A stretch of 64,000 nucleotides of DNA from a virus (Duplodnaviria; Heunggongvirae; Uroviricota; Caudoviricetes), in the IMG/VR virus record IMGVR_UViG_3300012359_000001, positions 38,417 through 102,416 of that record; one strand, 5' to 3'. This document shows positions 4,994 through 58,800 of the stretch, piece after piece. The number at the start of each line of letters is the position of its first letter. Within the stretch, counting starts at the first letter, position 1. Both the position numbers and the translations under genes were made by a program. A model generated the notes under the pieces. The model saw only the letters and a program-made list of their open reading frames with translations, searched no databases and was not told where the DNA came from.

Positions 4994-5514
4994 TCTTTTT
5001 TTTCGTCTTCTAAATCTTCCTTGTTGAAGCCGTTCAGGGCCATAGCCGGTTCCGCTACCAGTTCAAGGACTTCCCCTGGCATGGCTTTATTCATGGCGTC
5101 ACGGTCAAGCGGTTGAAAGACTAACTCGCCTGCATGTGGATGGTCATAGGTGTAGGGATGTGTGAGCGCCTGTTTGTCTCGGTTGTACTGTGCCAGTGAC
5201 TTGTCATACTTTGCCTGATCACGTTCAGAAAAGTTGTCAGGGATAGGATCAGGCTTGATAGGCTGCTCAGGAGGACAATCAGGATCAGGGTAGTGCAGTG
5301 AGCGTACGAACAGTTCTGCATACATCACTTTGATGTCTACACGTCCCGTTTTCTGATTGATACTATTGTTGAGTACTTCCCCCTTTTCATCTCCCATCAA
5401 TTCCCTGATGGTAAACCACCCGCCCAACCGTTCAAGGTATACGGCTTGTTGCTTGACTTTGACCTGTCGATTAAGCACATACTCACGAACATCAATAAAA
5501 TCTGACATACACAC
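4921..5514 (-). CDS. Tail assembly chaperone (G-like product)
   Basis: 197-aa ORF directly upstream of the tape measure gene. It contains an A8 slippery run (see the frameshift feature). Confidence 0.6.
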   Translation of the reverse strand: MCMSDFIDVREYVLNRQVKVKQQAVYLERLGGWFTIRELMGDEKGEVLNNSINQKTGRVDIKVMYAELFVRSLHYPDPDCPPEQPIKPDPIPDNFSERDQAKYDKSLAQYNRDKQALTHPYTYDHPHAGELVFQPLDRDAMNKAMPGEVLELVAEPAMALNGFNKEDLEDEKKDLRGTVIDSTLTTSRNGSATSIPI

Positions 5515-5520
5515 TCATTT

Positions 5521-6174
5521 CTAGACCGCATAAAAGGGGCCGGTAATCTGGAACTCTAAATCTTCCGTCACCACTTTATCAATTGCTGATTTAATGCTCA
5601 TTTTGCTATCGAAGATATAGCCCTCTAGTCTGTTGCCAGCAGGAGTCACACACGATGCAACAAGAGGCGTGCCAGCCGTGACGTAGGAGAACACTGTCCA
5701 GGTTAACTCATCTACCCACCAATTTTTTAGTTTCATACTGCCCTTCATCACGGTTGGAGTGAACACTCTAGCGCGTGATCCTCCAATGCCTGTGAGAGCA
5801 GTCGTATCTTCAAGTTGCCACTCACCATCAAAGTCCCACTCCGCTACGTTGGCAAGGGTCGTATAGGGCAAATACTTTCCTACTGTAATGCGTGCTGAAG
5901 GGGTTGCACCAGTTACAGCAGCAGGGAAGGTTACTTTGCCTCCCACGTATTGTACTGAGAGCGGTATGACTGTACCCCAGGAAGTTGACCCATCAGGTGA
6001 GGTTTGAAACGTCATGGCTGTACTGGAGTCCCAATAGCGATAGGCGGCATTGGCACTACTCACCAGAAACGTGGTGTGATCCCCGCTATCCTGTAAGGGA
6101 AAGTTTGCAGAGAGCGAGACCGCCGGTATTGATGTGATAAGCAAACTAGAATTAATTGCCGCTGTAGCGCCCAT
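5521..6174 (-). CDS. Major tail (tube) protein, paralog 2
   Basis: 217 aa. The C-terminus MSIKSAIDKVVTEDLEFQITGP is shared with the adjacent 132-aa protein. It occupies the usual major tail protein position upstream of the chaperone. Confidence 0.55.
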   Translation of the reverse strand: MGATAAINSSLLITSIPAVSLSANFPLQDSGDHTTFLVSSANAAYRYWDSSTAMTFQTSPDGSTSWGTVIPLSVQYVGGKVTFPAAVTGATPSARITVGKYLPYTTLANVAEWDFDGEWQLEDTTALTGIGGSRARVFTPTVMKGSMKLKNWWVDELTWTVFSYVTAGTPLVASCVTPAGNRLEGYIFDSKMSIKSAIDKVVTEDLEFQITGPFYAV

Positions 6175-6192
6175 ACTATCACCTCTTGCTGT

Positions 6193-6591
6193 TTATGCCG
6201 CGCTTATGGTTGACGTAGGCTGAAGCTCGATATCATCGGCTATTGCCTTATCAACGGCAGCCTTAATACTCATCTTTGCGACGTAGCAGGTCATGCTATA
6301 CGTCGTGTTCGTCGCACCATTAGCAGGACTAAACGTCATGGTAAGCAAGGTAGGAGGTGAGGCAAAGAACGCATTCTGAATGGCTAGTTGACCATTGGTA
6401 TCAGTCATGTCATAAAATACTTTTGCCTTGATGCTTCCCTTGTACAGCGTAGGCAAATACTGACGCCCTCGCTGTCCCATGACAGACACTTCTTCCATCT
6501 GGTTCTCAAAGTCAGCATCCACCTCCTGTACCTGTGCGACGGTCGCGCTAGATACTTTTAATAGTGCCTGATATGCAGCTATTGCACCCAT
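6193..6591 (-). CDS. Major tail (tube) protein, paralog 1
   Basis: 132 aa. The C-terminus MSIKAAVDKAIADDIELQPTS is paralogous to 5521-6174. Confidence 0.5.
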   Translation of the reverse strand: MGAIAAYQALLKVSSATVAQVQEVDADFENQMEEVSVMGQRGRQYLPTLYKGSIKAKVFYDMTDTNGQLAIQNAFFASPPTLLTMTFSPANGATNTTYSMTCYVAKMSIKAAVDKAIADDIELQPTSTISAA

Positions 6592-8929: not shown

Positions 8930-9155
8930 CTACCGCCTTGATCTCGACATTGAACTTCTGTCCAAGTTGAGCGTCATGAAACACTTTTGCAGCAGCAGGG
9001 TTGACAATGAGCAATTCAAGTGTTCCATTCGGGGTTGCAGGTCCGAATGGTTCGCCCTGCACTGGTACAAACTTGAAATTTGTTGCTTCTCCTGATGGGT
9101 GATACATGATACGCTTTGCCTCTACAAGATGGAATTGCGCGAGAACACTACTCAT
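8922..9155 (-). CDS. Hypothetical protein
   Basis: 77-aa ORF in the head module. Confidence 0.3.
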   Translation of the reverse strand: MSSVLAQFHLVEAKRIMYHPSGEATNFKFVPVQGEPFGPATPNGTLELLIVNPAAAKVFHDAQLGQKFNVEIKAVDE

Positions 9156-9459
9156 GTTGTGTGAATACCTCCAATGTGTCTACATGCACCTGATAGCGAC
9201 CACGCTGTACCTCAATCCCTGCACACTCTACTTTTCGGTAGGACGGGTCGTCAGGATGTATTTGAACGCTATAGCGCGGTGTGATTTCTGATGGGTAGAA
9301 CTCTTCAGCGACAGGCGGGAACTCAGCAGCATCAAGCAGTAAGAGCAACGTATCCCCAAAGTCCCGTTCTTGCTGTACCGCCAGTACCTTGCAATCATCA
9401 GGCATCAGTAACATCCCCGCTAATACTTTGAGACTAATCCTGAGTAACGCCTGTCCCAT
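9148..9459 (-). CDS. Hypothetical protein
   Basis: 103-aa ORF in the head module. Confidence 0.3.
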   Translation of the reverse strand: MGQALLRISLKVLAGMLLMPDDCKVLAVQQERDFGDTLLLLLDAAEFPPVAEEFYPSEITPRYSVQIHPDDPSYRKVECAGIEVQRGRYQVHVDTLEVFTQHE

Positions 9460-9481
9460 GTACGTAGTACCCCTTTTACGC

Positions 9482-10030
9482 TTATTCTTCAGTGAATTCT
9501 ACGTTAATGTCAAAAGCCGCACCTGTAGTTGTAACGCCATTCAGGTTAATCGCAATGACTTCAGCGATACCACGAATCACTGGTGCCTGGGCAGGTCTAT
9601 CACCAAAGGTCAAGAATAACTTCTCAGGTCCGGTGGTAGCGGTTGCAGGGGCAGACAGGTACACATAAGCAACTTTGATGTTCCCGATAAGCGTCCCTGT
9701 GGTGGGATTGGCTGTATAGGCAAGAACTGTTGCTGTAGCCGCCCCACTTGCGCTATCATGCGGTACAATCGTTGGCGCTGTGCTGGTGCCAACAGTATTT
9801 GCCACCGAGCGTTTCAAGAGGACAATCTGAACAGGGACCGCCGTTGTCGATTGTCCTGAAATCTCGATACGGGTAATCCTGACGGTCTTCGTTGCCGATC
9901 CGGTGATAGTAAAAATGTCGGTTGCGCTTGCAGCAGTCACCAGACCAGTGATACTTGCTGAGTACGTTGCTTTCAGTCCGTCAACAGGCGCTATGCTGTT
10001 GGGAGGTACCGACGGTACAATAACTGGCAT
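9482..10030 (-). CDS. Hypothetical structural protein (Thr/Ala/Ser-rich, possible decoration or Ig-like)
   Basis: 182 aa with T/A/S-rich composition. Located just downstream of the capsid gene. Confidence 0.4.
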   Translation of the reverse strand: MPVIVPSVPPNSIAPVDGLKATYSASITGLVTAASATDIFTITGSATKTVRITRIEISGQSTTAVPVQIVLLKRSVANTVGTSTAPTIVPHDSASGAATATVLAYTANPTTGTLIGNIKVAYVYLSAPATATTGPEKLFLTFGDRPAQAPVIRGIAEVIAINLNGVTTTGAAFDINVEFTEE

Positions 10031-17584: not shown

Positions 17585-18895
17585 CTCCGTTCAGGAAGCC
17601 CTACGGCTTCAGCCAAGGGAGGAATGAACGGCTTCCGCAGAAGCATTATTGCGTATTGACGATATCCCTCTAAGTGTGCTATAATACTGACATGAAACAA
17701 ACCATGCTCTTGAAACTGGCACCATCGCCAGAACAACAGAACGCCCTGCTTGAAGTCATGCATGCCTTTAATGATGCGTGTAATATGATCGCGCAAGTGG
17801 CATACGATGAACAACTTGCCAACAAGTTCAAGTTGCAAAAGTTGGTCTATGCCACCGTACGCAAGGACTTCAAGTTGTCGTCTCAGTTGGCAATACGCGC
17901 AATCAGCAAAACGGTGGAGTCCTACAAGCATGATAAGAGCATCAAAGTTTCTTTCCGCCGTGAGGGTGCAATCACCTATGACGAGCGGGTAATGTCCTTC
18001 AAAGGGTTGAATGAAGTCTCCCTGCTCACTCTGCAAGGGCGTGTGTTGGTTCCGTTTCGTATCGGCGGCTATCAGGAGTCTCGACTTGACCAAATCAAGG
18101 GGCAGGCCGATCTTCTCTTGAAGGGAAATACCTTCTATCTTGCAGTCACCCTGGACGTGCCAACTCCTGAACCCTATCAACCGTCTGAGACGTTGGGTGT
18201 TGATCTCGGTATTATCAACCTTGCTACCGCGTCGGATGGTGAGACGTTTAGCGGACAGGCGATTGAGCATACCCGCATACGCATGCTCTCGTTGCGAACA
18301 CGTTTGCAGAAGGTTGGCACGAAGTCCGCAAAGCGCCACCTCAAGAAACTTTCCGGTCATGAGAAACGGTTTCATCGTAACACGAATCATGTGATCTCCA
18401 AACATCTGGTACATAAAGCGAAAGTCAATGGACAAGAACTCGCGATTGAAGACTTAAGGCACATTCGTAAGAATGCAACGGTTCGGAAGTCTCAGCGCAA
18501 TCGACACGCCTCCTGGTCCTTCTGGCAACTGCGCTTCTTCCTCTCCTACAAGGCGGCGCTTGCGGGTGTTCCCTTGCACGTGGTAGACCCGCGTAACACG
18601 TCTCGAACGTGCCATGTGTGCGGACACTGCGAGAAAGCGAACCGCAAGAGTCAAGCCCTGTTCCTCTGTAAACAGTGCGGCATGTCGATGAACGCTGACA
18701 TCAACGCCGCAATAAACATATCTAGGGCTGAAGTCATGCAGCCTATGGCATCGGGACGCGCCCAGGTGCAAGCCGTTGGGTTTTAACTCAGGCGGTCATG
18801 ACTCTTGCGCTCCCTCTCCATACCGTTCAGGAAATTTACCCTTTGCCGTCTCTCTCTGGGGATAATCTGAAATATTCCCTATCAGTGGAGCAGAG
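17585..18895 (+). mobile_element. IS200/IS605-family element carrying only tnpB (IS1341-like). Boundaries approximate.
   Basis: Subterminal hairpins at 17600-17650 (GAAGCC..GGCTTC; GCTTCcgcaGAAGC). tnpB at 17692-18786. The motif CCGTTCAGGAA is repeated near both ends (about 17590 and 18832). Confidence 0.55.
17692..18786 (+). CDS. tnpB: TnpB (IS605 OrfB) RuvC-like RNA-guided nuclease family
   Basis: RuvC-I LGVDLGI, RuvC-II AIEDL, zinc finger CHVCGHC...CKQCG, and RuvC-III NADINAAINI. TATAAT sits 12 nt upstream of the ATG. Confidence 0.85.
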   Translation: MKQTMLLKLAPSPEQQNALLEVMHAFNDACNMIAQVAYDEQLANKFKLQKLVYATVRKDFKLSSQLAIRAISKTVESYKHDKSIKVSFRREGAITYDERVMSFKGLNEVSLLTLQGRVLVPFRIGGYQESRLDQIKGQADLLLKGNTFYLAVTLDVPTPEPYQPSETLGVDLGIINLATASDGETFSGQAIEHTRIRMLSLRTRLQKVGTKSAKRHLKKLSGHEKRFHRNTNHVISKHLVHKAKVNGQELAIEDLRHIRKNATVRKSQRNRHASWSFWQLRFFLSYKAALAGVPLHVVDPRNTSRTCHVCGHCEKANRKSQALFLCKQCGMSMNADINAAINISRAEVMQPMASGRAQVQAVGF

Positions 18896-21396: not shown

Positions 21397-21768
21397 TTAT
21401 TCCTTTGTACTGTCAGGAAAAAATGAGAGGTCTAATGCACATTCCCCATGTCCGATTGAGATGGTATAGGCGATTCTCCCATACCTTCTGTGCGTAGGTT
21501 CACCGATTTGTCTGATTGCATACCCGTCAGTTATTTCTCTGATAACATCCTCTGCTGGTGAGAGGGTTTCAGACCAGGGGATAGCGATGAGATCAAAGTC
21601 TTTTGCAAGGCTCCCATGAACAGCAAGTGCGTACCCATGCCTTTGAAATATCTTTGCCAGTTCAGGGTACAGCGCGGCGGCATACACGGGCGCATAGTTC
21701 GGCTTAATCTGCTCAGCCTCTTTCATCTCATCATTCGTCTCCATAGCCATGTGACGACGCCCAGGCAA
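21397..21768 (-). CDS. Hypothetical protein
   Basis: 123 aa. Overlaps the terL start by 38 nt. Confidence 0.35.
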   Translation of the reverse strand: MPGRRHMAMETNDEMKEAEQIKPNYAPVYAAALYPELAKIFQRHGYALAVHGSLAKDFDLIAIPWSETLSPAEDVIREITDGYAIRQIGEPTHRRYGRIAYTISIGHGECALDLSFFPDSTKE

Positions 21769-23110
21769 ACGGGTCTATCCGTTCAATCTCTGCAATCGTT
21801 GGTATCAGTACGGTTGTTGAGGTGACTTCTTCACCTCTCAATGGGACATTAGGACAAAACTTGTACGCGCATAAGTAGCGTTCACAATCTTTTGCATGAT
21901 CAAACTTCTTCACTGGTGCTTCATTCACTTTTTTACCATTAGAGGTATCCCAGATGTAATTCTCAAATTCAGCTTCAGAGCAAATAGGCAAACTTTGTTT
22001 CTGTAGCACCGGATCGACTTCTACTAGACTATCCCGTAAGAAGTACATGCCTGCTCGTCCGTTGGCATTCGGGCGTAATCTTGCTTGCATTTCTTGTATA
22101 CCCACTGACACCGCTTTGTTTGCAGCCAGGGTGCTATATCCAGTATAGCGTTCAAGCGTAGCGCGGTCTTCAGCATTATGATCGCAAATAATTGCAGATG
22201 GAGGTGGTTCACCCTGTGTTATCTGCATGATCAGTTTTGCGTGGTCTTCTACTAGTGTACCGGTCTTATAAATCTCATGGTAGCGGTACAGTTCGTCGTC
22301 GGGTGACTCGGCCCAGGCTTGCCATACAAACGGGTTGCGAAAGCCAAAGTCTACCACCCAATAACGCGGCCAATCGGCAGGGATATCAAAACGGTTGACA
22401 ATGTGCAGAGCAGGGTTCCATTCCTCCTCATACACCATACCCTCAGAGCTGGCCCAGATACCTTTACGCAACCGTAAGTACAGCACCCCTGATAACGCGT
22501 CTAACGTGGCAAGGTCTTCAGCAGTGCAGGCAGGGTTATCTTCATGCTTGCTATCAAGGAGCAACGTCTTACCCGCGTCACAGCGTTGTTTGAGCCAATG
22601 GTTAGCAGGACCAGGGTTACAGTCTCCAAGCAATTGCTGGTAGGGCATGACGTGATTACGTAGTCGTGATGTGAGGCTTTCCCAATCCACTTGATCCAGT
22701 TCTATCGCCTCTTGCGGATAGATAAAATCCCACTCTGATGACATGATCTTTTGTGGATCATCTAACCCGCCCACGGCTATGATACTCCCGTTGGGATACT
22801 CATATTGCTGATCAGTCACATTGAAGCGTATCAGGCTGCCGAGCCAGCCTTGCGGTAATACCTTCGTCTCATACGTCACCATAGCGGTTTGTGTGAGACT
22901 TTTGCGCGTTTTACGTACCATCAAGCCGCGCATACCCTTATACTTGTCAGCACAGTAATGCAGCTTTTCTATGGCACACCTAGATTTTCCAGTATTTGCC
23001 GCTCCGCACAAAAGCAACTCCCTACGAGCTGAGCGCCATGCTTTAAGAGCACCGCCGAAGGGTTGATACGGGCGCTTCTCTTTGACGTAGGAAGAGGCAA
23101 GAGTGATCAC
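21731..23110 (-). CDS. terL: Terminase large subunit
   Basis: Walker A-like LLCGAANTGKS near the N-terminus. 459 aa with a C-terminal nuclease-like region. The small subunit gene lies immediately upstream. Confidence 0.85.
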   Translation of the reverse strand: MITLASSYVKEKRPYQPFGGALKAWRSARRELLLCGAANTGKSRCAIEKLHYCADKYKGMRGLMVRKTRKSLTQTAMVTYETKVLPQGWLGSLIRFNVTDQQYEYPNGSIIAVGGLDDPQKIMSSEWDFIYPQEAIELDQVDWESLTSRLRNHVMPYQQLLGDCNPGPANHWLKQRCDAGKTLLLDSKHEDNPACTAEDLATLDALSGVLYLRLRKGIWASSEGMVYEEEWNPALHIVNRFDIPADWPRYWVVDFGFRNPFVWQAWAESPDDELYRYHEIYKTGTLVEDHAKLIMQITQGEPPPSAIICDHNAEDRATLERYTGYSTLAANKAVSVGIQEMQARLRPNANGRAGMYFLRDSLVEVDPVLQKQSLPICSEAEFENYIWDTSNGKKVNEAPVKKFDHAKDCERYLCAYKFCPNVPLRGEEVTSTTVLIPTIAEIERIDPFAWASSHGYGDE

Positions 23111-23613
23111 TTCTCAATACCATCCTGAGCAGGGTCAAAGGTGTACTCTTTGGGGAGCGTTTCAACCGTGATATGTTGCCTGTCTCGATATTCACTCATT
23201 CTGGATTTGGCGTGAAAGATCAAAAGAGTGTCGCTTTTCTCTCGATAGGTGAGCGGCTTCCCATCTGCACCATACACCAGTTTGCCTTGCGCAACCACAA
23301 ACCGTTCCTCTCCAAACATGCCACGCCTGAATATCTCAGCACGTATAGCATCGTCAACATCGGCTTTTGCAAGGGCGTACTTCATGTTGAACGCTTCATC
23401 ATGCTCTGCCCACTTGTGAACCGTTGAACGGTCAATGCCAGCAGACATGCAGGCCGCTCGTACATTGCCGTTGGAGGCAAACGCTTTCAAGAATTTCTCT
23501 TGTGTCTCCGCAACTTCTTCTTTGGTGAGTCTTACCCCTTTGCGGCGTACTGATGTACGTACATGGCTACGTGCGTTTTTTGTGTGTGTTGACGTGTTGG
23601 TGTGATCAGACAT
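23107..23613 (-). CDS. terS: Terminase small subunit (HTH)
   Basis: NVRAACMSAGIDRSTVHKWAEHD is an HTH typical of terS. Start set at the ATG at 23613 with a GAGAGGG RBS. Confidence 0.6.
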   Translation of the reverse strand: MSDHTNTSTHTKNARSHVRTSVRRKGVRLTKEEVAETQEKFLKAFASNGNVRAACMSAGIDRSTVHKWAEHDEAFNMKYALAKADVDDAIRAEIFRRGMFGEERFVVAQGKLVYGADGKPLTYREKSDTLLIFHAKSRMSEYRDRQHITVETLPKEYTFDPAQDGIEK

Positions 23614-23675
23614 AAAACTACCCTCTCGTATGCATACTATTGCCAGTATAGACGAGAGGGCAAAGAACAAACAAA

Positions 23676-24104
23676 TTAAAATGAGAATGGATGCTGTATC
23701 TGACGAGGGGCAAACACTATCTCCTCTGGCACCTCGAAGAGTGTTTGCCTCCCTCGATAGGGCACAAATGGTAATGCGAGTGGGTGGGACAGTACCCACC
23801 CGTAGAGGCCGCAAAACCAGGGACTTGCGTTCTCTGTTACAATATCCACCAGATCGACAATTCCAATGATCCCGCCTGTCGGGTGGTGCTCACTCCTGAA
23901 TTGTACAAAGGTTTTTTCATCAATAATCCGCGCTATTTGCTCGTATCCTTCAGGATCAATCGTCTTACTGGCGTGTATCAACAACGGTCCTCGGTAGGGA
24001 GTAGTCCAGGTACGGTTCTCTATATGCTTCCACCCCTTTATGATGACGGAAGCCCACGGCTGACGGACGCTAATACAGCGAATACAGCGAATACGCATAC
24101 ACAC
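23676..24104 (-). CDS. ASCH domain protein
   Basis: ISVRQPWASVIIKGWKHIENRTW...GPLLIHASK matches the ASCH pattern. The N-terminus is encoded by a 9-bp tandem repeat. Confidence 0.55.
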   Translation of the reverse strand: MCMRIRCIRCISVRQPWASVIIKGWKHIENRTWTTPYRGPLLIHASKTIDPEGYEQIARIIDEKTFVQFRSEHHPTGGIIGIVDLVDIVTENASPWFCGLYGWVLSHPLALPFVPYRGRQTLFEVPEEIVFAPRQIQHPFSF

Positions 24105-25405: not shown

Positions 25406-25511
25406 AGTATATCATACGTACGTATATGTGTCAAGTGGCTTTACAGGCGGTTTTTGCGGTACTTTGAAAAACCATTTAGAGGTTGACAAACGTACGTATA
25501 TGTGGTAAGGT
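25406..25511. promoter_or_regulatory. Divergent promoter pair, each with the same palindromic operator (ACGTACGTATATGTG) in the spacer
   Basis: Minus strand: TTGACA (rc of 25429-25434), 17-nt spacer, TATACT (rc of 25406-25411). Plus strand: TTGACA 25483-25488, 17-nt spacer, TAAGGT 25506-25511. Operator copies at 25416-25430 and 25490-25504. Confidence 0.5.
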
Positions 25512-25532: not shown

Positions 25533-25721
25533 ATGAAAACAGGGCGAACCAAAGTCTATGCCGACGCACAGCCATTTGATATAAAAAATCTTTCTGCCGA
25601 TCTGAAGAAGAAGTTTGAGGAAGGGCAAGTTCGATACAAAGAAAGGACAGGGCAAGAAATGACGAGACGGGGATATCTTGAGCATTTGCTCAGAACACAC
25701 CCCGAATTGCAGAAGGACTAA
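25533..25721 (+). CDS. Hypothetical small protein
   Basis: 62 aa with a strong GAGAGGAGAGG RBS, downstream of the plus-strand promoter. Confidence 0.4.
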   Translation: MKTGRTKVYADAQPFDIKNLSADLKKKFEEGQVRYKERTGQEMTRRGYLEHLLRTHPELQKD

Positions 25722-26419
25722 ATTCGTATACGTCCGTGGTCATGCCAAAGGTGCTGTCGCTTCCAAGCGTGATTACGGACTGGTTCACGATACATCCTCC
25801 CTTTGAAAGACACGACGCCCTCACGCGCCTGCTCATCAAAGTAGTAGTCCTCGCTATCCCACGGTGTACGCCCCTCACGCTCAGGTGCCAGCAGTAACTC
25901 ACCTTCCACCAACTTCTGCATACAGGATGACTGTCCGACGCAAAAATGTCCGATTCGACGCTTTCCGTAAACCGCTAATGACTTGAACGCTAGCCATAAC
26001 CCTGCGGCAGTATCCCCAATGTAAAAGGGTAGATAAGGACCATATTCCAGCCAACTTCGGCATTGTGCCAGCATATCAAAGGACACTTCCCCTACTTCAC
26101 TGCGTAGTGACACCCACACACATTGCATTTCATCGGCTAATTGCGCAGGGTCAACGTCCCACTTTTCTAGCGTCTGTGGGCGAAAGTTATCAAGCACGAT
26201 ATCAGGATAATCCAGGGGATGCAGATCAAGAAGCGAGAGGATATTCTTCTCTTCCATCTGCTTACCCGCATTAATCCATTCCCACAACTCATCACCCTGG
26301 CGCAAGCCAAGTATCGGATCTTTGCCAGTATGCCACTTTGTAACTTCGCATCCCTGCTCGGCCAAGATCATGCCAGCGTAGGCAACGCTTACATAATTGC
26401 CCAATTCAAGAACGCGCAT
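25718..26419 (-). CDS. CoA-transferase family III (CaiB/BaiF)-like protein, short form
   Basis: N-terminus MRVLELGNYVSVAYAGMILAEQGCEVTKWHTGKD aligns with the CaiB/BaiF N-terminal fold (kVLD..G..aGP....LA..GA.ViKiE). It is only 233 aa, against about 400 aa for canonical enzymes. Confidence 0.45.
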   Translation of the reverse strand: MRVLELGNYVSVAYAGMILAEQGCEVTKWHTGKDPILGLRQGDELWEWINAGKQMEEKNILSLLDLHPLDYPDIVLDNFRPQTLEKWDVDPAQLADEMQCVWVSLRSEVGEVSFDMLAQCRSWLEYGPYLPFYIGDTAAGLWLAFKSLAVYGKRRIGHFCVGQSSCMQKLVEGELLLAPEREGRTPWDSEDYYFDEQAREGVVSFKGRMYREPVRNHAWKRQHLWHDHGRIRI

Positions 26420-26756
26420 ACTGCAACACCTCCTGTACCTGATTATCAGGAGTACAGTATACGACGGTCACACCACTGAACACTTCTTCCTGACGATAGG
26501 CAATCACAATACACGTATCTCCCACTTCACCAAGACGAGCGCCGCCGCCATTGAGAGTAAACACACCCTCCTCAGATGGCAGGGCATATGTTACCCACCT
26601 GTTGCCATTCGAGAGGTTGACAATATGTACTTGCTCATAGGGATCGATGCCTGCAATCTTAAGCAAAGAGGCATCGATACTCGCCGAGCCATGATACCTC
26701 AAACTTTTATCGGTTACGTACAGATTATGGAGTTTTGCACTTACAAACGTTTTCAC
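26406..26756 (-). CDS. panD: Aspartate 1-decarboxylase (pyruvoyl-dependent)
   Basis: MKTFVSAKLHNLYVTDKSLRYHG|SASID...NGNRWVTYAL...NGGGARLGEVGD aligns along the full length of PanD. The Gly-Ser self-cleavage site and the Lys9, His11, Arg54, Thr57 and Tyr58 equivalents are present. Confidence 0.8.
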   Translation of the reverse strand: MKTFVSAKLHNLYVTDKSLRYHGSASIDASLLKIAGIDPYEQVHIVNLSNGNRWVTYALPSEEGVFTLNGGGARLGEVGDTCIVIAYRQEEVFSGVTVVYCTPDNQVQEVLQYARS

Positions 26757-26915: not shown

Positions 26916-28193
26916 CTACTTGATGGGTGGAGCGTACTCAAAAGTAGCAGTTCCCAGGCGGCGGTACTGTGCTTGCCGCCCTCGCAAAACCGGATCGGCA
27001 GTTTTTGAGCTAGAGAGTGATGCCACATTCGTGTAAGAACCATGATGACTCTTCTGCATATTCAGAGCATCGCGCTTCTTGTCTAAATGGTCGTCTAGGC
27101 AGACTAGACGACCAGAGTTACTGTGATACAACATTTTCTGGTTCTTCTTCCACCTCGACGACTCTGACGCAGGCGATGGACCCGATGCATCCACGCCACA
27201 TTGCTTCCAGCGAGGGCTACGTGAGTAGTATGCAATCATAGCAGGATGGGCAACCGTATTATGGTAGCGATAGCCACGCTCATACAAATACTGGCCGAGC
27301 CAATCATCAAAACGTCCACCTAAACCTAAACCTTGATAATCAGGACGAACGACTAAGCGGTGCCCTTGCTTGATATTTCTGGTTTTCGGATGAGGAAGGT
27401 GCAAATAGGAAGAGAACGCTACGCACTCGCCTCCAATGAAACCAGCAAAGCATTGGGCCGCAGTATGGAGTACTCCACTTAGATAGTGATACTTGCTAAA
27501 CAGTCTCCATGCGGTTTTATCACACTGATAGATGCGGAACTCCAATTCTGGATGTCGTTGAAGTAACCTCCAATTGAAGGTATTAGTATGCGGCTGGTAC
27601 ACCCAATCAGGTTGTAACCAATCAAGCACATCATAATGGCACGTTACCGCGACCAATTGTTTTCCCGATTTGCGCACACTTTTCTGGATGCTGTGCGAAG
27701 CAACCTGCGCTACCTGCCGATCGACGACGCTGGTAAACTCATCAAGGACAATGAGATTCTCTGGTTCTAGTAACGCACGAGCCGCAGTGACACGGAACTG
27801 TTCACCCATGCTGAGTACAGCGTAGGGACGCATCCAGTTAGGAGGAGAACCAAAGCCGACACCGCACAACGATCCGGTGATATCCTTGATCGAAAGTCCT
27901 TTAGGCATTGCATCAACCACACTTTTATCAACGGGCCAGTCATCATAACCGATACGAACACAATCACCATAGAGAGCACGCGCAACCGTTGTTTTGCCAC
28001 TACCAGAGGGTCCAACAATAAGCCCGATGGACCAATCCTTTTGGTTGAGCGGCAAGTCAATATCCCAAGACTCAATAGATCGTTCTGAAATCGGGATATC
28101 GAATAAACTCTCTAATTGTTGTATACGTGCCGTTCGTTGCACGGCACATTCTTTCACGATATGCGCTTGCATTACAGTACCAGTGCCCGACAT
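26916..28193 (-). CDS. ABC-type ATPase nucleotide-binding domain fused to a GNAT-like acyltransferase domain
   Basis: Walker A GPSGSGKTT, signature-like LSMGEQ, Walker B LIVLDEFTSVVD, H-loop VTCHYD. C-terminal HRLVVRPDYQGLGLGGRF resembles GNAT motif A. Confidence 0.55.
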   Translation of the reverse strand: MSGTGTVMQAHIVKECAVQRTARIQQLESLFDIPISERSIESWDIDLPLNQKDWSIGLIVGPSGSGKTTVARALYGDCVRIGYDDWPVDKSVVDAMPKGLSIKDITGSLCGVGFGSPPNWMRPYAVLSMGEQFRVTAARALLEPENLIVLDEFTSVVDRQVAQVASHSIQKSVRKSGKQLVAVTCHYDVLDWLQPDWVYQPHTNTFNWRLLQRHPELEFRIYQCDKTAWRLFSKYHYLSGVLHTAAQCFAGFIGGECVAFSSYLHLPHPKTRNIKQGHRLVVRPDYQGLGLGGRFDDWLGQYLYERGYRYHNTVAHPAMIAYYSRSPRWKQCGVDASGPSPASESSRWKKNQKMLYHSNSGRLVCLDDHLDKKRDALNMQKSHHGSYTNVASLSSSKTADPVLRGRQAQYRRLGTATFEYAPPIK

Positions 28194-28783
28194 GTAATCC
28201 CCTCTCCCTGAAAGCGATCTAAGAGCACCAATTGCTCTTGCTCATTCTGGCAATCAATGATAATACCCCATCGCTCGGCAACGTCTGTTTGTTCAGCATT
28301 CCCCTCCTCTGGTAACTTGTCAGCATTTCTCCCTATCACCTCATCACCCAAACCCTCCAACATTTGCCGCAATGTCTCATCATCGCTACCAAGTGTCACC
28401 AGATCGTACCCTGCGTTTTGTTGTTCGGTAAGCAATTCTGCTAAAAGCGCATCATCGTCTACAGCATCCGCACTCAGGAGGTTATCGGCTACAATATAGG
28501 CATTGCATTCTAAATCAGAAAATGTTGGAGGCAGGATCGTTGCGTGAAGTTGGCTCATTTTGAGTTGTTGCGCCGCTTCGACCACACCATGACCTGCAAG
28601 GATCGTGTATGACCCATTCCCCTCATCCCTGCACACAATATCGCGCATCTGCCCGAAGCGTTCAAGACTCATCTTGATTTTATGTACTTGTTCGGGTGGA
28701 TGCGAACGGAAGTTCCGCTCAGATGGGTAGAGGGCAGCAACGGACACCTGATAATGCTCTTTGACAATCTCTTGCTCGATCAT
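28172..28783 (-). CDS. ParB-like nuclease domain protein
   Basis: LYPSERNFRSHPPEQVHKIKMSLERFGQMRDIVCR...YTILAGHGVVEAAQQL is a ParB/Srx fold pattern. Confidence 0.55.
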   Translation of the reverse strand: MIEQEIVKEHYQVSVAALYPSERNFRSHPPEQVHKIKMSLERFGQMRDIVCRDEGNGSYTILAGHGVVEAAQQLKMSQLHATILPPTFSDLECNAYIVADNLLSADAVDDDALLAELLTEQQNAGYDLVTLGSDDETLRQMLEGLGDEVIGRNADKLPEEGNAEQTDVAERWGIIIDCQNEQEQLVLLDRFQGEGITCRALVL

Positions 28784-30144: not shown

Positions 30145-30615
30145 TCATGGGCAAGCTGTAGGGAAATACCTGCTTTTTTTTGCAAGTCGCTCAGGCGTAA
30201 TCTCTGGGTAAAGTTTCATGATGACAGAGACTCTACTTCCTAATTCACCTTTTATTAATGGTGAGCTATTTTTAGCCTGCCCTGTTTTTGATTTGCTTTC
30301 AAAAATGGACTGAAAATCTTTGTAAGTGAAAGACTTTGCAACATCCAGATTGAATAGACGCACCCCCAAGGAGAGGTAGTAGCGTATCCAATATTGCTCT
30401 CTTCCTTTAGCTTTCTCTATTGTTTCCACTTGCTCAAGAGTACGCATGATAAGCATGAAGCTTTCACTCTTTAGTTCCTGTATCCACTCATTCTTGTCGA
30501 TATTATTCCCGCTACACTGCACATGCTGAGAGAAGCGTTTATACACATCATCAGTAATGCCAACATAGCGTACAACATCGTTGCGAGGATCGATCAGGAC
30601 GTAAACAGCAATCAT
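30145..30615 (-). CDS. GIY-YIG homing endonuclease
   Basis: VYVLIDPRNDVVRYVGITDDVYKRFSQH is the GIY-YIG motif. Confidence 0.75.
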   Translation of the reverse strand: MIAVYVLIDPRNDVVRYVGITDDVYKRFSQHVQCSGNNIDKNEWIQELKSESFMLIMRTLEQVETIEKAKGREQYWIRYYLSLGVRLFNLDVAKSFTYKDFQSIFESKSKTGQAKNSSPLIKGELGSRVSVIMKLYPEITPERLAKKSRYFPTACP

Positions 30616-30927: not shown

Positions 30928-31998
30928 TTACGCCCTCCGCAATGCGCGGCGCTGTCCGATCTGGTCTGCAAGAACGGCATACCCGCGAGCATTCGCTTTC
31001 TCAGGATCGGCTATCTGCACAGCGTTCTTGATGATTTTTTGTAGCGATGAATGGAAGTAGTACGCGCCGCCGCCGCAATGCAGCACTGATTTAAAGCTAG
31101 AAGCTACTTTGCCGCTCTGGTTACTCCACACACTAGAGATTTTTGCATTCTTCTCATCACCAGTTTCCTTGATAGCGGCTTTGACCCACTGCTGCAAATC
31201 TATCCCTGAAACTTGTATTCCATCAGCATACAGTTCTGGATAGGCACCAATATTGATACTTGCACGAAGGACAGCCTGCATTTCTGGCTCTGAGAGTTCA
31301 CGCCCGTATTTCGCCTCAAACTTTGTGCTCAACCGATAGAGGGCATTATTGACGCCGATCTCGAAACTATCGCACTGCTCAGTATGTGCCTTGTGTCCAT
31401 CAAAGCGAAGCATGTTGGTCGTGAGCGATCCGCTATCAACTATTCCTATCGTACTGGTCTTATCAAAACCGTGATAGATAGCAGCTCCCGCGCCCTCCAT
31501 GAACACCTTGACCGTCTCGACGCTGATCGCCATATCACGCCCATTGAACTGATAGCGATACACGCCGGTTAACTCTTCAACGATCTTGCTAGACTGTTCC
31601 TGGTAAGCACGCAAAGGAACGCCCATAACCAGATTGATGGAGAACTCCTGTATCCCAGGCCATATCTGCGCGGCAGCCAGCGAAGCAAAGCACATGATAG
31701 AAACCTGAGTACGTTTGTTGTGATAGCGGTGCTTGTCTTTAAAATCTGAAGTTGGGTTAAGTCCCTGCTCAGCAAGATCAGACAAAAAGTACACTGATCC
31801 GTCATATTCCACCATCAACTCGTTAGGATTGATGGTTTCACCGAGTCCACTGCCAGATTTCAGGGATTGATACTTCTTTAAGTTCCCTTCCGAGATGAGG
31901 CTTGACGCGTCGAACTCCAATAATCTGCCAGTATCCGTCATAACAGCGATATTTGTACGCTGATTGCCCCTGTCGAAGCCTAAATTCAATGTTTTCAT
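30928..31998 (-). CDS. parM: Actin-like ATPase, ParM/StbA family
   Basis: Phosphate-1 LGFDRGNQRTNIAV, phosphate-2 IVDSGSLTTN, adenosine HCGGGAY. Confidence 0.7.
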   Translation of the reverse strand: MKTLNLGFDRGNQRTNIAVMTDTGRLLEFDASSLISEGNLKKYQSLKSGSGLGETINPNELMVEYDGSVYFLSDLAEQGLNPTSDFKDKHRYHNKRTQVSIMCFASLAAAQIWPGIQEFSINLVMGVPLRAYQEQSSKIVEELTGVYRYQFNGRDMAISVETVKVFMEGAGAAIYHGFDKTSTIGIVDSGSLTTNMLRFDGHKAHTEQCDSFEIGVNNALYRLSTKFEAKYGRELSEPEMQAVLRASINIGAYPELYADGIQVSGIDLQQWVKAAIKETGDEKNAKISSVWSNQSGKVASSFKSVLHCGGGAYYFHSSLQKIIKNAVQIADPEKANARGYAVLADQIGQRRALRRA

Positions 31999-32634: not shown

Positions 32635-33204
32635 TTACGCTCTTCTCTTGAGTCCACATTGCTCTAGAACATAGGCGGCGTGGCGACGATAGCGGCTATT
32701 GGTGATACCCATTTTCGCCAGGGCATCATTCACATTGCCAACTTTCCGGTACCAATATTGCAGGTCATCATGTAAATTTTCTGGTAAAAACTTGTCATCT
32801 CCTCTAGGGATATACCCATCACGAGAAGAGTCGGGTCTATTTTTCACTTCCAGTGCTGCAACGGCTTGAATGGCTATTTGACGAGAAGCCTGCACTTGCA
32901 ACTTTTTAATCTCTTTGAGTGCTAATCTATGGGTAGCATTTGTAAGAGGTTCACTTAACGTCTCAAAATGTTTAATCCAATAAGCCTCTCGCTCAAGGGA
33001 AAATTGATAGTTTCCAACTTGTTCCAGTGTCTCCATAATGACCATGCGATTGAGCGCACGCAGTTCAAAAATCCAGGCATTCTTTACAAAACTGCTGCCC
33101 TCTCCGTTAATATGCTGAGTAAATCGCTGGTAGACATCAGTTGTTTGACCGACATAGTGAACGGTGTAGTCTCGCGGATCTACCAGCGCGTAAATGGTAT
33201 ACAT
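32635..33204 (-). CDS. GIY-YIG homing endonuclease (second copy)
   Basis: IYALVDPRDYTVHYVGQTTDVYQRFTQH. The C-terminal module ...SRYRRHAAYVLEQCGLKRRA is shared with the upstream ATPase. Confidence 0.75.
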   Translation of the reverse strand: MYTIYALVDPRDYTVHYVGQTTDVYQRFTQHINGEGSSFVKNAWIFELRALNRMVIMETLEQVGNYQFSLEREAYWIKHFETLSEPLTNATHRLALKEIKKLQVQASRQIAIQAVAALEVKNRPDSSRDGYIPRGDDKFLPENLHDDLQYWYRKVGNVNDALAKMGITNSRYRRHAAYVLEQCGLKRRA

Positions 33205-36382: not shown

Positions 36383-37153
36383 TTACTTCCAGTAGTCTAT
36401 TTTTTCAGACATCCTGTACTCAAAACGAGTTGCATCTGCAATAGTTCGATGCAAGGCAACCACTGAATTATCAACAGAATAGTTGATACGACGCACTTCA
36501 AAGACAGGCTGAAAACGAGCCAGTTTTAATGTCTCGCACTCAGCAAATGTTGGTGGACGGGACTGGATGGTAAGATCGGTATGGTCAACTGATACACCGT
36601 ACTTCTGTTTGATAGCAAGCATCGTATCGAAGCCAGGGTCTTGACGCATCTGCTCTACAAAAACACTGGCAAGCGAAACCGGATACCAGATATGACCAAT
36701 CCTCAACGGTTGCTCATCTGTTCCCTGTAACCGTGATCGATGCACAACGTGAACACCTTCAGGGATAGCAATGTCTCCGTCTCTTTTCATAAAAAGAATA
36801 GCCACATCAGGAGGCATCGATGCAATCACAGGATCAACCAGGTTTTCTTCCACCGTCTTCAACCCTAATTTTTGTAAATGGGTTATAAAATTTGGCGTCA
36901 GACCAGGGAGAATGATCCGCAATTGTGCAACCTTGTAACGGTTACCAGCAACAGGAACAACAAGTCCTTCAGATCGTAGGATGAGCAACGCATTTGTAAC
37001 AGTCACGCGTATAGTTTTCCACTCTTTCGCAATAGAGGCGATAGAGGGAAGTATCCCTTCATTTCCGTAGTCTCCATTTTTAATCCGACTACGAAAATCA
37101 TCAGCTATCTGCTCAACTAGCGTCCCCCCTTCAGTATCACTCACTTCTTTCAA
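36383..37153 (-). CDS. GntR/HutC-family transcriptional regulator
   Basis: N-terminal GntR HTH (SIASIAKEWKTIRVTVTNALLILRSEGLV) plus a UTRA-like C-terminal domain. Confidence 0.7.
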   Translation of the reverse strand: MKEVSDTEGGTLVEQIADDFRSRIKNGDYGNEGILPSIASIAKEWKTIRVTVTNALLILRSEGLVVPVAGNRYKVAQLRIILPGLTPNFITHLQKLGLKTVEENLVDPVIASMPPDVAILFMKRDGDIAIPEGVHVVHRSRLQGTDEQPLRIGHIWYPVSLASVFVEQMRQDPGFDTMLAIKQKYGVSVDHTDLTIQSRPPTFAECETLKLARFQPVFEVRRINYSVDNSVVALHRTIADATRFEYRMSEKIDYWK

Positions 37154-57714: not shown

Positions 57715-58800
57715 ATGAAGACAAGTAAGAAGAAGTGGAACGAACCATCAACACCGGTCATGCCTCAGCAGCAAAATGCGTGGCATCCGGTAACAGTTCG
57801 AGAACTAAGAGAGCAACGGGAGCGTTTTAATATCGATCCTCCTTTTCAACGGAAACAAGCATGGAACCGTCGGCAATGTCAGCAACTCTATGAGACGATG
57901 TTCCAGGGACGACCGATAGGGACACTTGAAGGGTATCGTGAGAATACAGCGATGGAGGGCGGAACCGTCTTTGGTATTATTGATGGACACCAGCGCATTA
58001 CGGCTATTCTGCGCTTCGTTGATAACAATATTAAAACCTGGACGTATCCTCAAAAGTTGCAACTCTTCCCAGGTTCCGAAGCGCCGAAACAGCCTGGACG
58101 ATTTTTCAGAGATCTCGATGTGAATGCAAGGAACTACTTTCTTGACTATCGGGTGGATATCAACCTTATCCCAAAGATGACTGACCACGAATTAGTTGAA
58201 CGGTTCCTTGAGATACAGTGTCATGTGCCGCTCTCGCCTGCTGAACGATTGTATGCCTATCCTAGTAAAGCGAAGGAACTAGCAAAGCGGATCGGCTCAC
58301 ACTTACTTTGGGATGGGTTCTATGCAGGAGAACGGCATAGAGGACAGGTTTTTCAAAGTTGCCTCTGTCTTCTGGCAATTGAACTGCAAGGCGGTATTGC
58401 CGATCTACGAGGTCAAAGCGTGTACATCAATAGCCTTGCGTGCGGGAAGCGTGACGATGAGATTACAACCACAGTAGAGCAGAGAGTGAGAGGGCATTTG
58501 GATGAGGTGTGTTTACTCTTTTCAGGGATGCAGTTCACTGACAGGATAGCCAGCGTGGTCATGTATCAAGCTGTGATGAAGTTGAAAGAGTGCGGATATC
58601 AAATAAAAACAACCGATCGCGGGAAACTGACAACCTGGATACTGAACATCATCAATGAGTCAAAGCAGGTAATGGGGATACCTGTCTATAACCAGCCAAT
58701 CCAACGCCTCCTTTACGCTTCATCTCAAAAAGTATTCTGGGAACATAACCTGAAAGTGGTGTTGCGGCTAATGGATATACCTGAATCGCAAGAGGGATAA
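57715..58800 (+). CDS. DUF262 (ParB-like, GmrSD N-terminal type) domain protein lacking an HNH/DUF1524 domain
   Basis: FQRKQAWNRRQCQQLYETMFQGRPIGTL...VFGIIDGHQRITAIL matches the DUF262 pattern (DGQQR with His). No His-Me nuclease motif in the C-terminal 200 aa. Confidence 0.55.
   Translation: MKTSKKKWNEPSTPVMPQQQNAWHPVTVRELREQRERFNIDPPFQRKQAWNRRQCQQLYETMFQGRPIGTLEGYRENTAMEGGTVFGIIDGHQRITAILRFVDNNIKTWTYPQKLQLFPGSEAPKQPGRFFRDLDVNARNYFLDYRVDINLIPKMTDHELVERFLEIQCHVPLSPAERLYAYPSKAKELAKRIGSHLLWDGFYAGERHRGQVFQSCLCLLAIELQGGIADLRGQSVYINSLACGKRDDEITTTVEQRVRGHLDEVCLLFSGMQFTDRIASVVMYQAVMKLKECGYQIKTTDRGKLTTWILNIINESKQVMGIPVYNQPIQRLLYASSQKVFWEHNLKVVLRLMDIPESQEG

Follow-up and report, generated by a model that had tools for sequence, protein, structure and literature searches.

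Why would a tailed phage carry panD, the gene for an enzyme of the host pantothenate and CoA pathway, and what would it do with the beta-alanine? We addressed this question in a window of 64,000 nucleotides of a viral record (IMG/VR IMGVR_UViG_3300012359_000001, positions 38,417 to 102,416), in which a sequence-only reading had proposed that one open reading frame encodes an intact, phage-borne PanD serving either to boost CoA or to supply an unknown modification. That the gene is phage-encoded was borne out by the rest of the genome, which is that of a tailed phage with small and large terminase, portal, prohead protease, HK97-type capsid and tape measure genes. The reading frame in question is:

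26406..26756, minus strand: panD, pyruvoyl-type aspartate 1-decarboxylase proenzyme, 116 aa (Pfam PF02261, PDB matches, residue alignment)

In Pfam the product matched PF02261 (Asp_decarbox) with an E value of 1.5e-28 (99.4 bits, cut-off 25), its residues 3-106 covering profile positions 4-113 of 115, and the earlier assignment as PanD along the whole length thus held. Alignment to solved PanD structures, which had been proposed as a check, gave phmmer matches in the PDB to the C. jejuni, M. tuberculosis and E. coli enzymes (E about 1e-14 to 1e-15). The processing motif reads Y21-H22-G23|S24-A25-S26-I27-D28, with G23|S24 as the predicted self-cleavage site. In the alignment, K8, H10, Y21, G23 and S24 correspond to E. 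coli K9, H11, Y22, G24 and S25, and R53, T56, Y57 and N69 to R54, T57, Y58 and N72, so that the Gly-Ser site and the Lys, His, Arg, Thr and Tyr positions named in the sequence-only reading all proved to be in place. K8, Y21, G23, S24, R53, T56, Y57 and N69 were invariant among the 39 aligned sequences (37 relatives plus the E. coli and M. tuberculosis PanDs), while H10 was kept in at least 90% of them. The presence of R53 speaks for free aspartate as the substrate, since its counterpart is the Arg to which the beta-carboxylate binds. The window PanD is 33-38% identical to the E. coli and M. tuberculosis enzymes and shares with bacterial PanDs the full-length domain, the Gly|Ser site and the equivalents of K9, H11, Y22, R54, T57, Y58 and N72; it differs from them in being phage-encoded, shorter (116 aa) and devoid of a C-terminal tail, and in having a CoA-transferase and a GNAT as gene neighbours rather than panB and panC. 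Judged by its residues, it looks like an orthodox and catalytically intact member of the PanD family.

The panD gene belongs to an operon in the order ParB-like gene, ABC-ATPase/GNAT fusion gene, panD and the gene of a 233-aa family III CoA-transferase, upstream of the terminase genes. The features are, from the first cassette gene to the terminases:

28172..28783, minus strand: ParB-like N-terminal domain protein, 203 aa, first cassette gene (Pfam ParB_N, sub-threshold; PHROG; Jace gp85)
26916..28193, minus strand: ABC-type ATPase fused to a GNAT acyltransferase, 425 aa (intact motifs of both domains)
26429..26434, minus strand: Shine-Dalgarno sequence, perfect AGGAGG, within the 3′ end of panD and 9 nt before the CoA-transferase ATG (read from the sequence)
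25718..26419, minus strand: putative truncated ("mini") family III CoA-transferase, 233 aa (Pfam CoA_transf_3, AF2/Foldseek fold, D136 alignment)
23676..24104, minus strand: ASCH (PUA-like) domain protein (Pfam ASCH, E=1.7e-5; phrog_3193)
21731..23814, minus strand: terminase genes, small about 23107-23613 and large 21731-23110 (Pfam Terminase_3, Sf6_terminase, PHROG TerS)

Since panD is on the minus strand, it lies upstream of the CoA-transferase-like gene. The overlap between the two genes noted in the sequence-only reading is real and measures 14 nt (ATGCGCGTTCTTGA), but it had been placed at the wrong end: it is the panD stop (TGA, 26408-26406) that overlaps the start of the downstream gene (ATG, 26419-26417). 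The panD start, a GTG with GAAGG 6 nt 5′ of it, overlaps no gene and is separated by a 159-nt spacer from the preceding ATPase-GNAT gene, whose own start overlaps the stop of the ParB-like gene by 22 nt. In 22 of 31 non-redundant loci the panD stop and the CoA-transferase start overlap by 4-23 nt, and in 7 more they lie within 26 nt; the tight coupling proposed earlier therefore extends to 29/31 loci, and from this arrangement the two genes appear to be almost always translationally coupled.

In 12 of 24 loci the panD and GNAT genes share 4 nt as well, and the PanZ/PanM protein of E. coli is a GNAT-fold acetyl-CoA sensor. PanM/PanZ, a GNAT-fold protein, binds and activates PanD (PMC3398536), a precedent which, together with the gene overlap, would favour PanD as a non-catalytic partner or regulator of the GNAT, or else as an enzyme decarboxylating an aspartyl group on CoA or on the target. 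We regard this as highly improbable, as the window PanD keeps its catalytic and substrate-binding residues, including the Arg for a free beta-carboxylate, not all of which a non-catalytic partner would need, and nothing in it corresponds to the C-terminal tail region of enterobacterial PanD.

The four genes together form a conserved cassette in the ParB-terminase locus, which the sequence-only reading had missed. Rhodococcus phage Jace encodes homologues of all four, with the gene order unchanged (gp85-88, 33-58% identity; ParB-like 33% with gp85, PanD 58% with gp87, CoA-transferase 52% with gp88). Prophages of Actinomyces and Alsobacter have the cassette too, as do most of the 39 IMG/VR loci (about 30 viral contigs) obtained by alignment-based scans and contigs from genomes or MAGs of Planctomycetota, Acidobacteriota (class Thermoanaerobaculia), Actinomycetota and Alphaproteobacteria. 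No close relative emerged when 20-34 kb was compared by megablast with 50,697 phage records, and IMG/VR scans with PanD alone or with the CoA-transferase alone gave no matches. The ParB/ABC-ATPase-GNAT module is far more widespread: IMG/VR has at least 600 loci of it, and its homologues in the protein collection number more than 7,500. About 90% of the ParB/ATPase-GNAT loci sampled lack panD and the CoA-transferase gene, which implies that the core works without these two, and about 10%, the window included, have them. The proposition that PanD never occurs without the CoA-transferase was true when the search was anchored on the ATPase-GNAT and false when it was anchored on PanD, which brought up 17 viral contigs with the same kind of PanD outside this cassette.

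These loci bear on the first of the two functions proposed earlier, that of an auxiliary metabolic gene by which PanD would raise host beta-alanine and thereby pantothenate and CoA, either for the infection generally or as acetyl-CoA for the adjoining GNAT. This would agree with an intact PanD that is close to PanDs of ordinary chromosomal contexts, with the CoA-related nature of all three neighbours, and with phages that have panD outside the cassette, such as Achromobacter phage 2-1, where it adjoins the DNA polymerase gene. However, a search by Pfam families found no panB, panC or coa gene within 10 kb either side of panD on the source contig, and panD is coupled to the CoA-transferase gene in nearly all loci, as described above. 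In viral loci with this PanD type the next gene encodes the mini CoA-transferase plus the GNAT, an ATP-grasp enzyme, an Amidoligase_2 or, in one context, a TauD dioxygenase, that is, mostly an acyl-activating, acyl-transfer or amide-forming enzyme. We consequently consider the CoA-boosting function improbable, and the evidence favours the other proposal, a modification. The cassette PanDs might have been taken for a separate neofunctionalised clade, because they fall under the NCBIfam cut-off (the window PanD scores 79.6 bits against the TIGR00223 equivalog, cut-off 106) and have a common NGGGARLG motif. This was ruled out by the 56-59% identity of the window PanD to PanDs whose chromosomal surroundings are ordinary and free of a phage cassette, namely those of a cyanobacterial MAG and a long metagenomic contig. 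NGAAARL-type motifs are widespread in bacterial PanDs.

If PanD makes beta-alanine, the coupled gene should tell what becomes of it. PF02515 (CoA_transf_3) matched the 233-aa protein with 35.5 bits (cut-off 23.3) over the N-terminal 96 aa only, and no family was matched in NCBIfam or PHROG. An AF2 model (pLDDT 95.1) gave Rv3272, YfdE, Frc and CaiB as best Foldseek matches, with E about 1e-9, probability 1.0 and TMq 0.6-0.68, the TM-score normalised to the targets being only 0.35-0.45. The protein has an invariant G135-D136-T137 motif whose D136 falls on Frc D169 (GDS), in an hhalign alignment whose low probability (12%) makes it a support rather than a proof; D169 of Frc and CaiB is the catalytic Asp of family III CoA-transferases. 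The model thus resembles these enzymes (Frc, YfdW/YfdE, CaiB, Rv3272, SUGCT) in fold, in the aligned catalytic Asp and in the N-terminal CoA-binding region, whereas it differs in having 233 aa rather than 350-430 aa, in aligning over only about 200-250 positions, and in lacking the full two-domain architecture along with a large part of the segment from which the interlocked dimer is built. From fold and catalytic Asp the mini CoA-transferase looks functional; with a length about 40% below that of any family III enzyme so far characterised, it might not be a transferase at all. We also considered a racemase, which is less likely because D136 has no conserved His partner. In 8 actinobacterial chromosomes the mini CoA-transferase gene lies between genes of a PLP group II decarboxylase, whose closest family is glutamate decarboxylase, and of an aminobutyraldehyde-dehydrogenase-like ALDH. 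These are the kinds of enzymes that make omega-amino acids, which links the mini CoA-transferase to such compounds independently of the phage cassette, and the neighbour genes point to beta-alanine or GABA as its probable substrate.

The ATPase-GNAT fusion has the motifs of both domains, Walker A (GPSGSGKT), signature (LSMGEQFR) and Walker B (LDEFTS) of the ABC ATPase and motif A (QGLGLGGR) of the GNAT. We compared its pocket residues among loci and noticed that G277/N312/Y323 occurred in 35 of 38 ATPase-GNATs from CoA-transferase-bearing loci and in 0 of 58 from loci without it, in counts which ignore kinship. The closest relative from a CoA-transferase-less locus, 66% identical, has A/L/C at positions 277/312/323. 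Together with the coupling of panD and the actinobacterial gene neighbours, this co-variation would link the PanD product to the GNAT, and a pocket signature that tracks the CoA-transferase would not be needed for a general CoA boost. The nearest structural relatives of the GNAT domain are generic protein or small-molecule acetyltransferases, and its match to RNA cytidine acetyltransferase was not significant (E=0.13 over 25 residues). TmcA/NAT10, the N4-acetylcytidine synthase, nevertheless offers a resemblance, though no more than that, in that it combines a P-loop ATPase with a GNAT, hydrolyses ATP in acylating the amine of a nucleobase and has a similar motif A (RLVVxPDYQGLGxG vs RIAVHPDYQGMGYG); its ATPase is of the helicase type, whereas that of the window protein is of the ABC type. 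Phage Mu Mom, which makes a GNAT-superfamily acyl modification of adenine N6, is alike in concept, in that the window enzyme too would be of the GNAT type and would protect phage DNA by acylating an exocyclic amine of a base with a donor of the acyl-CoA kind (PMC7824862). The window system has in addition an ABC ATPase domain, a ParB partner and its own donor-synthesis enzymes. Pfam and PHROGs gave no match to the Mom family, and a sequence relationship was not detectable.

The 203-aa protein matched ParB_N with E=1.9e-4 and 21.9 bits, under the 26.3-bit cut-off. Its best PHROG was phrog_498, "DNA methyltransferase" (ParB N-terminal domain), followed by ParB-like families, and in 61 of 67 viral loci the ATPase-GNAT gene comes after that of a ParB homologue. 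The small and large terminase genes, 2.6 kb downstream, form the downstream boundary of the ParB-terminase locus. An ASCH homologue is close 3′ of the CoA-transferase gene in Jace, in the Actinomyces prophage and in at least 10 other loci, usually adjacent and on the opposite strand, and ASCH is present in 21/67 ATPase-GNAT loci. Iyer et al. (2013) reportedly predicted the ParB-linked ABC-ATPase+GNAT system of phage ParB-terminase loci. The ABC-ATPase+GNAT system is known as a published prediction, and a 2021 review, which cites the 2013 prediction, calls its chemistry uncharacterised (PMC7824862); the ParB-terminase locus is likewise a published prediction and a site of DNA methylases (PMC4738411), and ParB-dependent phage DNA (thymine) dioxygenases are a precedent in it (PMC13229309). 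The window agrees with the predicted system in having ParB followed by the fusion, upstream of terminase and with ASCH nearby, and differs from it in the added pair of PanD and mini CoA-transferase and in the distinct GNAT pocket signature.

Combining these observations, we give roughly even credence to the cassette being a three-step acyl-donor pathway that ends in beta-alanylation, probably of phage DNA, rather than a stand-alone metabolic booster. In such a pathway PanD would convert L-aspartate to beta-alanine, the coupled 233-aa family III CoA-transferase would move CoA from a host acyl-CoA onto beta-alanine to give beta-alanyl-CoA, and the GNAT domain of the ATPase fusion would transfer the beta-alanyl group to an amino group of the target with the help of the ParB-like protein and ATP. 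The acceptor would most probably be a nucleobase of phage DNA that has been replicated and is about to be packaged, and the ASCH protein would be a candidate reader or eraser of the beta-alanyl mark. What the sequences show is the family and the conserved residues of each protein, the kept gene order and overlaps, and the co-variation of GNAT and CoA-transferase; the substrates, the order of reactions and DNA as the acceptor are what we infer. The ParB type, as found in the N-termini of phage DNA methyltransferases, the position upstream of the terminase genes and the association with ASCH speak for DNA as the target, as do the published predictions and the precedent of the dioxygenases. The same route from aspartate through beta-alanine and beta-alanyl-CoA to the GNAT could serve another acceptor. 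This might be RNA (tRNA included), a protein such as the terminase, the portal or a factor of the host, or else a nucleotide or other small molecule, for instance a dNTP or a signal in immunity. We rate an acceptor other than DNA as rather unlikely, given a ParB partner of a kind that phage DNA methyltransferases carry in fusion and a cassette fixed directly upstream of terminase, the home of DNA methylases and ParB-dependent thymine dioxygenases (PMC4738411, PMC13229309).

In the literature searched, no paper tied PanD or aspartate decarboxylase to ParB, GNAT or phage DNA modification. To our knowledge, no GNAT uses beta-alanyl-CoA and no beta-alanylated DNA base has been described. Amine-bearing phage DNA hypermodifications, namely putrescinyl-, aminoethyl- and aminoethoxymethyl-pyrimidines and dPreQ1, place a primary amine on the base and are built on 5-hydroxymethylpyrimidines or 7-deazaguanine. 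The product predicted here would likewise add a primary amine, but through an amide, and no hydroxymethylase, 5-HMUDK, aGPT-Pplase or DpdA was seen among the genes examined. We would tentatively propose, with less confidence than for the pathway itself, that phages with the cassette carry N-(beta-alanyl) (3-aminopropionyl) nucleobases, the donor being made on site and installed before packaging by the ParB-guided ABC-ATPase/GNAT. The PanD and mini CoA-transferase add-on gives a first concrete guess at a donor, beta-alanyl-CoA, for the ParB/ABC-ATPase-GNAT module, and this donor predicts a mass shift of +71.04 Da. If the proposal is true, the wider ParB/ATPase-GNAT family would be a general DNA-acylation machine with its donor set by a few pocket residues, donor specificity perhaps residing in residues 277, 296, 312, 314 and 323. 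It would also mean a new class of amide-linked, amine-bearing DNA hypermodification, a new use for PanD, and a minimal CoA-transferase scaffold usable for making aminoacyl-CoAs. Since the cassette is present in Jace (gp85-88), a cultured and publicly held Rhodococcus phage, the hypothesis is directly testable.

Some smaller features of the locus may be added. The window ASCH protein carries the family motif GxKxxExR, with Glu at the position of YqfB Thr24; a role as a YqfB-type amidohydrolase was set aside, as it rests on a by-eye alignment with YqfB. In the window ParB the aGh.R motif is without its consensus Arg, which counts against the proposed pathway, and residues 335-396 of the ATPase-GNAT are a disordered insertion specific to the window. 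A promoter and terminator scan gave nothing over shuffled expectation, with the exception of one strong promoter-like site before dnaN.

PanD lies in a cassette whose four genes all occupy the minus strand of the window:

28172-28783, minus strand: ParB-like protein, first gene of the cassette
26916-28193, minus strand: ABC-ATPase fused to a GNAT acyltransferase, second gene of the cassette
26406..26756, minus strand: PanD ORF, 116 aa, GTG start with GAAGG 6 nt upstream
25718..26419, minus strand: 233-aa family III CoA-transferase-like protein, directly after PanD

The PanD ORF matched PF02261 (Asp_decarbox) in Pfam over nearly its full length (E=1.5e-28) and the solved PanD structures of C. 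jejuni, M. tuberculosis and E. coli with E values of ~1e-14 to 1e-15. In both a pairwise and a 39-sequence alignment, the G24|S25 self-cleavage site of E. coli PanD corresponded to phage G23|S24, and E. coli K9, H11, Y22, R54, T57, Y58 and N72 to phage K8, H10, Y21, R53, T56, Y57 and N69. G23, S24, K8, Y21, R53, T56, Y57 and N69 are invariant among 37 relatives and H10 is kept in at least 90%, so the sequence-only reading of a full-length PanD with its processing and catalytic residues holds, also against the characterised structures. The phage protein scored 79.6 bits, below the NCBIfam panD equivalog cut-off of 106 bits, and matched no PHROG family. Two chromosomal relatives (59% and 56% identity), on an 803-kb cyanobacterial MAG contig and on metagenomic contigs of 327-392 kb, have ordinary neighbourhoods with no phage cassette nearby, and phage PanD is no farther from them than from other phage copies. 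Since these chromosomal enzymes are equally close and the Arg for the free beta-carboxylate of aspartate is kept, the likeliest reaction is the standard conversion of L-aspartate to beta-alanine and CO2. Judged by its sequence, PanD is very probably an active aspartate decarboxylase.

The same reading had the start of PanD overlapping an upstream CoA-transferase-like gene. This has to be reversed, since PanD is encoded on the minus strand: it is PanD that is upstream, and its TGA stop (26408-26406) overlaps the ATG of the CoA-transferase-like gene (26419-26417) by 14 nt, with a perfect AGGAGG 9 nt ahead of this ATG. A PanD stop/CoA-transferase start overlap of 4-23 nt was found in 22 of 31 non-redundant loci, with the two ends within 26 nt in 7 more, and a 4-nt overlap joins the stop of ATPase-GNAT to the start of PanD in 12 of 24 loci. 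Beyond the 3' end of the CoA-transferase gene the minus strand continues through a promoter-like site to dnaN, then to the gene of an ASCH-domain protein and finally to both terminase genes, the small one first. The promoter-like site is a strong sigma-70-like match just upstream of dnaN (25406-25434, minus strand; 11/12 positions, extended -10 TG) and delimits the cassette operon on its 3' side.

The Pfam match of the CoA-transferase-like protein is confined to its first 96 residues, and no NCBIfam or PHROG family matched it. An AlphaFold model built with 49 family members as input (pLDDT 95.1) gave Rv3272, YfdE, formyl-CoA transferase (Frc) and CaiB as top structural matches (E ~1e-9, query-normalised TM-score 0.6-0.68 for this predicted model), although the phage protein is ~40% shorter than any characterised family III CoA-transferase. 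Its invariant G135-D136-T137 presumably aligns to the catalytic Asp169 loop of Frc. On eight non-phage actinobacterial chromosomes (L051, L054, L055, L057, L059-L062; mini CoA-transferase at ~9001-9710) the gene lies between a PLP-dependent group II decarboxylase and an aldehyde dehydrogenase, whose closest families are glutamate decarboxylase and aminobutyraldehyde dehydrogenase. The operon opens with an IclR regulator, and in L051 a second PLP decarboxylase follows; it may represent an uncharacterised omega-aminoacyl-CoA pathway. The mini CoA-transferase thus occurs beside enzymes of three unrelated types, PanD in phages and the PLP decarboxylase and aldehyde dehydrogenase on chromosomes, all of which would yield omega-amino acids, suggesting that the carboxylate it uses is beta-alanine or GABA.

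Among cultured phages, only Rhodococcus (Gordonia) phage Jace encodes a close PanD. Its gp85-gp88 match the four cassette genes one for one and in order, with 33%, 53%, 58% and 52% identity to the window proteins. The cassette also recurs in two prophages, one of Actinomyces urogenitalis and one of Alsobacter, the latter with PanD shifted by 3 kb. A CoA-transferase profile retrieved 39 IMG/VR loci, most of which carry the cassette, and it is further present on MAG or genome contigs of Planctomycetota, Acidobacteriota (class Thermoanaerobaculia), Actinomycetota and Alphaproteobacteria. The ATPase-GNAT family is very large: the protein collection contains >7,500 homologues, and IMG/VR yielded at least 600 stretches. 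Among 67 sampled viral ATPase-GNAT loci with enough downstream sequence, a ParB gene precedes ATPase-GNAT in 61 and an ASCH homologue occurs in 21, whereas PanD and the CoA-transferase occur in only 7, both every time; in loci lacking the pair, small terminase, large terminase and portal come directly next. ParB and ATPase-GNAT are therefore the core module of the literature's ParB-terminase locus, and PanD and the mini CoA-transferase form an accessory pair placed between core and terminase. The core was reportedly predicted computationally in a 2013 study. One 404-aa protein (P0222, on a 9,365-bp ENA contig) has CoA_transf_3 and ABC_tran Pfam domains together, and may be a natural mini CoA-transferase/ATPase fusion or a gene-calling artefact.

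We compared 103 non-identical ATPase-GNAT proteins and observed that the GNAT pocket varies with the accessory pair. Gly, Asn and Tyr at positions 277, 312 and 323 of the window protein (G/N/Y) occur in 35/38 proteins with a CoA-transferase in the locus and in 0/58 without (Fisher p=4e-23, kinship among sequences ignored). In the modelled secondary structure, 277, 312 and 323 map to strands 4 and 5 and helix 4 of the GNAT fold, elements that generally line the acyl-CoA cleft of GNATs. Position 296 is Asp or Glu in 35/38 proteins with the CoA-transferase and mostly Ser in those without. Three of the 38 proteins depart from G/N/Y: one has N/N/Y, and the other two are second, paralogous copies whose loci carry G/N/Y in the first copy. 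The closest relative of the window protein lacking the accessory pair (66% identity) has A/L/C, and the largest such group has E/S/R. As G/N/Y is also kept in loci with the CoA-transferase and no nearby PanD, the signature tracks what the CoA-transferase makes, and PanD would be the supplier. In six loci (L024, L026, L028-L030, L035) two paralogous ATPase-GNAT genes flank PanD and the CoA-transferase (878-1978 and 3035-4138 in L024), the first copy with G/N/Y and the second with L/N/H, which suggests two different acylations in one phage. Residues 335-396 of the window protein (26916-27190, minus strand) hold a ~55-residue insertion, predicted to be disordered, before the conserved C-terminal FEYxPP motif; part of it is common to one relative (P0003) only and absent from the rest of 32 aligned relatives.

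A search anchored on PanD yielded 17 further viral contigs (L153, L154, L156, L160, L161, L163, L165, L169, L170, L172, L176-L182; PanD at ~5001-5350 in most) with a similar PanD, 42-55% identical, and no ParB, GNAT or CoA-transferase. The gene directly after PanD is of one of three kinds, for example:

L154, 4911-6056: ATP-grasp enzyme
L176, 5353-6222, and L178, 5314-7083: Amidoligase_2
L160, 5355-6287: TauD dioxygenase

In most of these contexts PanD's neighbour is an amide-bond-forming or acyl-activating enzyme, and in none is it a pantothenate gene, which argues, from gene content, that the beta-alanine made by phage PanD would serve as a building block and not to raise CoA. Between the two roles first proposed, CoA boosting or an unknown modification, the latter is favoured. 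In these 17 contigs PanD also lies near tail-fibre-like (Mtd_N) and VWA/metallopeptidase genes. Achromobacter phage 2-1 has an independent PanD (5989-6384 of its locus, ~40% identical) directly upstream of a DNA polymerase gene; none of ParB, ATPase-GNAT and CoA-transferase was detected in that locus.

In the pathway we propose, PanD would cleave itself at G23|S24 and decarboxylate aspartate, the mini CoA-transferase would form beta-alanyl-CoA with a host acyl-CoA, and the GNAT domain, with help from its ABC ATPase and from the ParB-like protein, would transfer the beta-alanyl group to a target amine. Translational coupling, the non-phage context and the GNAT co-variation together make it probable that PanD feeds the CoA-transferase and GNAT. 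DNA as the acceptor is close to an even call; it is suggested by the type of ParB (best PHROG, ParB N-domain of DNA methyltransferases), terminase adjacency, the ASCH association and published predictions. Phage ParB proteins have been reported to be required partners of DNA thymine dioxygenases (PMC13229309). Structure comparison returned generic neighbours for the GNAT, and its likeness to RNA cytidine acetyltransferase was not significant. Cytosine N4 would be an attractive guess, by analogy, because ASCH proteins include known N4-acylcytosine amidohydrolases (PMC6972931), although unlike YqfB the window ASCH has no obvious counterpart of its catalytic Thr. Phage PanD as such is not unique, Jace gp87 being already annotated as PanD and Achromobacter phage 2-1 having another. 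Within the literature searched, the PanD/mini-CoA-transferase donor module, the strict way in which GNAT pocket residues co-vary with it and the specific prediction of beta-alanylated DNA appear new; the last is directly testable because a cultured phage carries the cassette.

The window derives from a 102-kb metagenomic viral contig with no close relative found among 50,697 phage records. Its genes mark the genome as that of a tailed phage: both terminase subunits, portal, prohead protease, HK97-type capsid and tape measure, besides DnaB, a replication-O-like protein and DnaN. A TnpB/IS605 OrfB-type gene with OrfB_IS605 and Cas12f1-like_TNB domains (17674-18786, plus strand) sits, in opposite orientation, within the block separating large terminase from portal. 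An actin-like segregation protein (ALP_N/Alp7A-like; 30928-31998, minus strand) and a GntR-family regulator (36383-37153, minus strand) hint at a plasmid-prophage lifestyle, and two GIY-YIG genes of the early region (30145-30615 and 32635-33204, minus strand) are likely homing endonucleases. A GmrSD_N (DUF262) protein (57715-58800, plus strand) carries a domain of type IV restriction enzymes, which cut modified DNA, and is noteworthy because this phage is itself predicted to modify its DNA.
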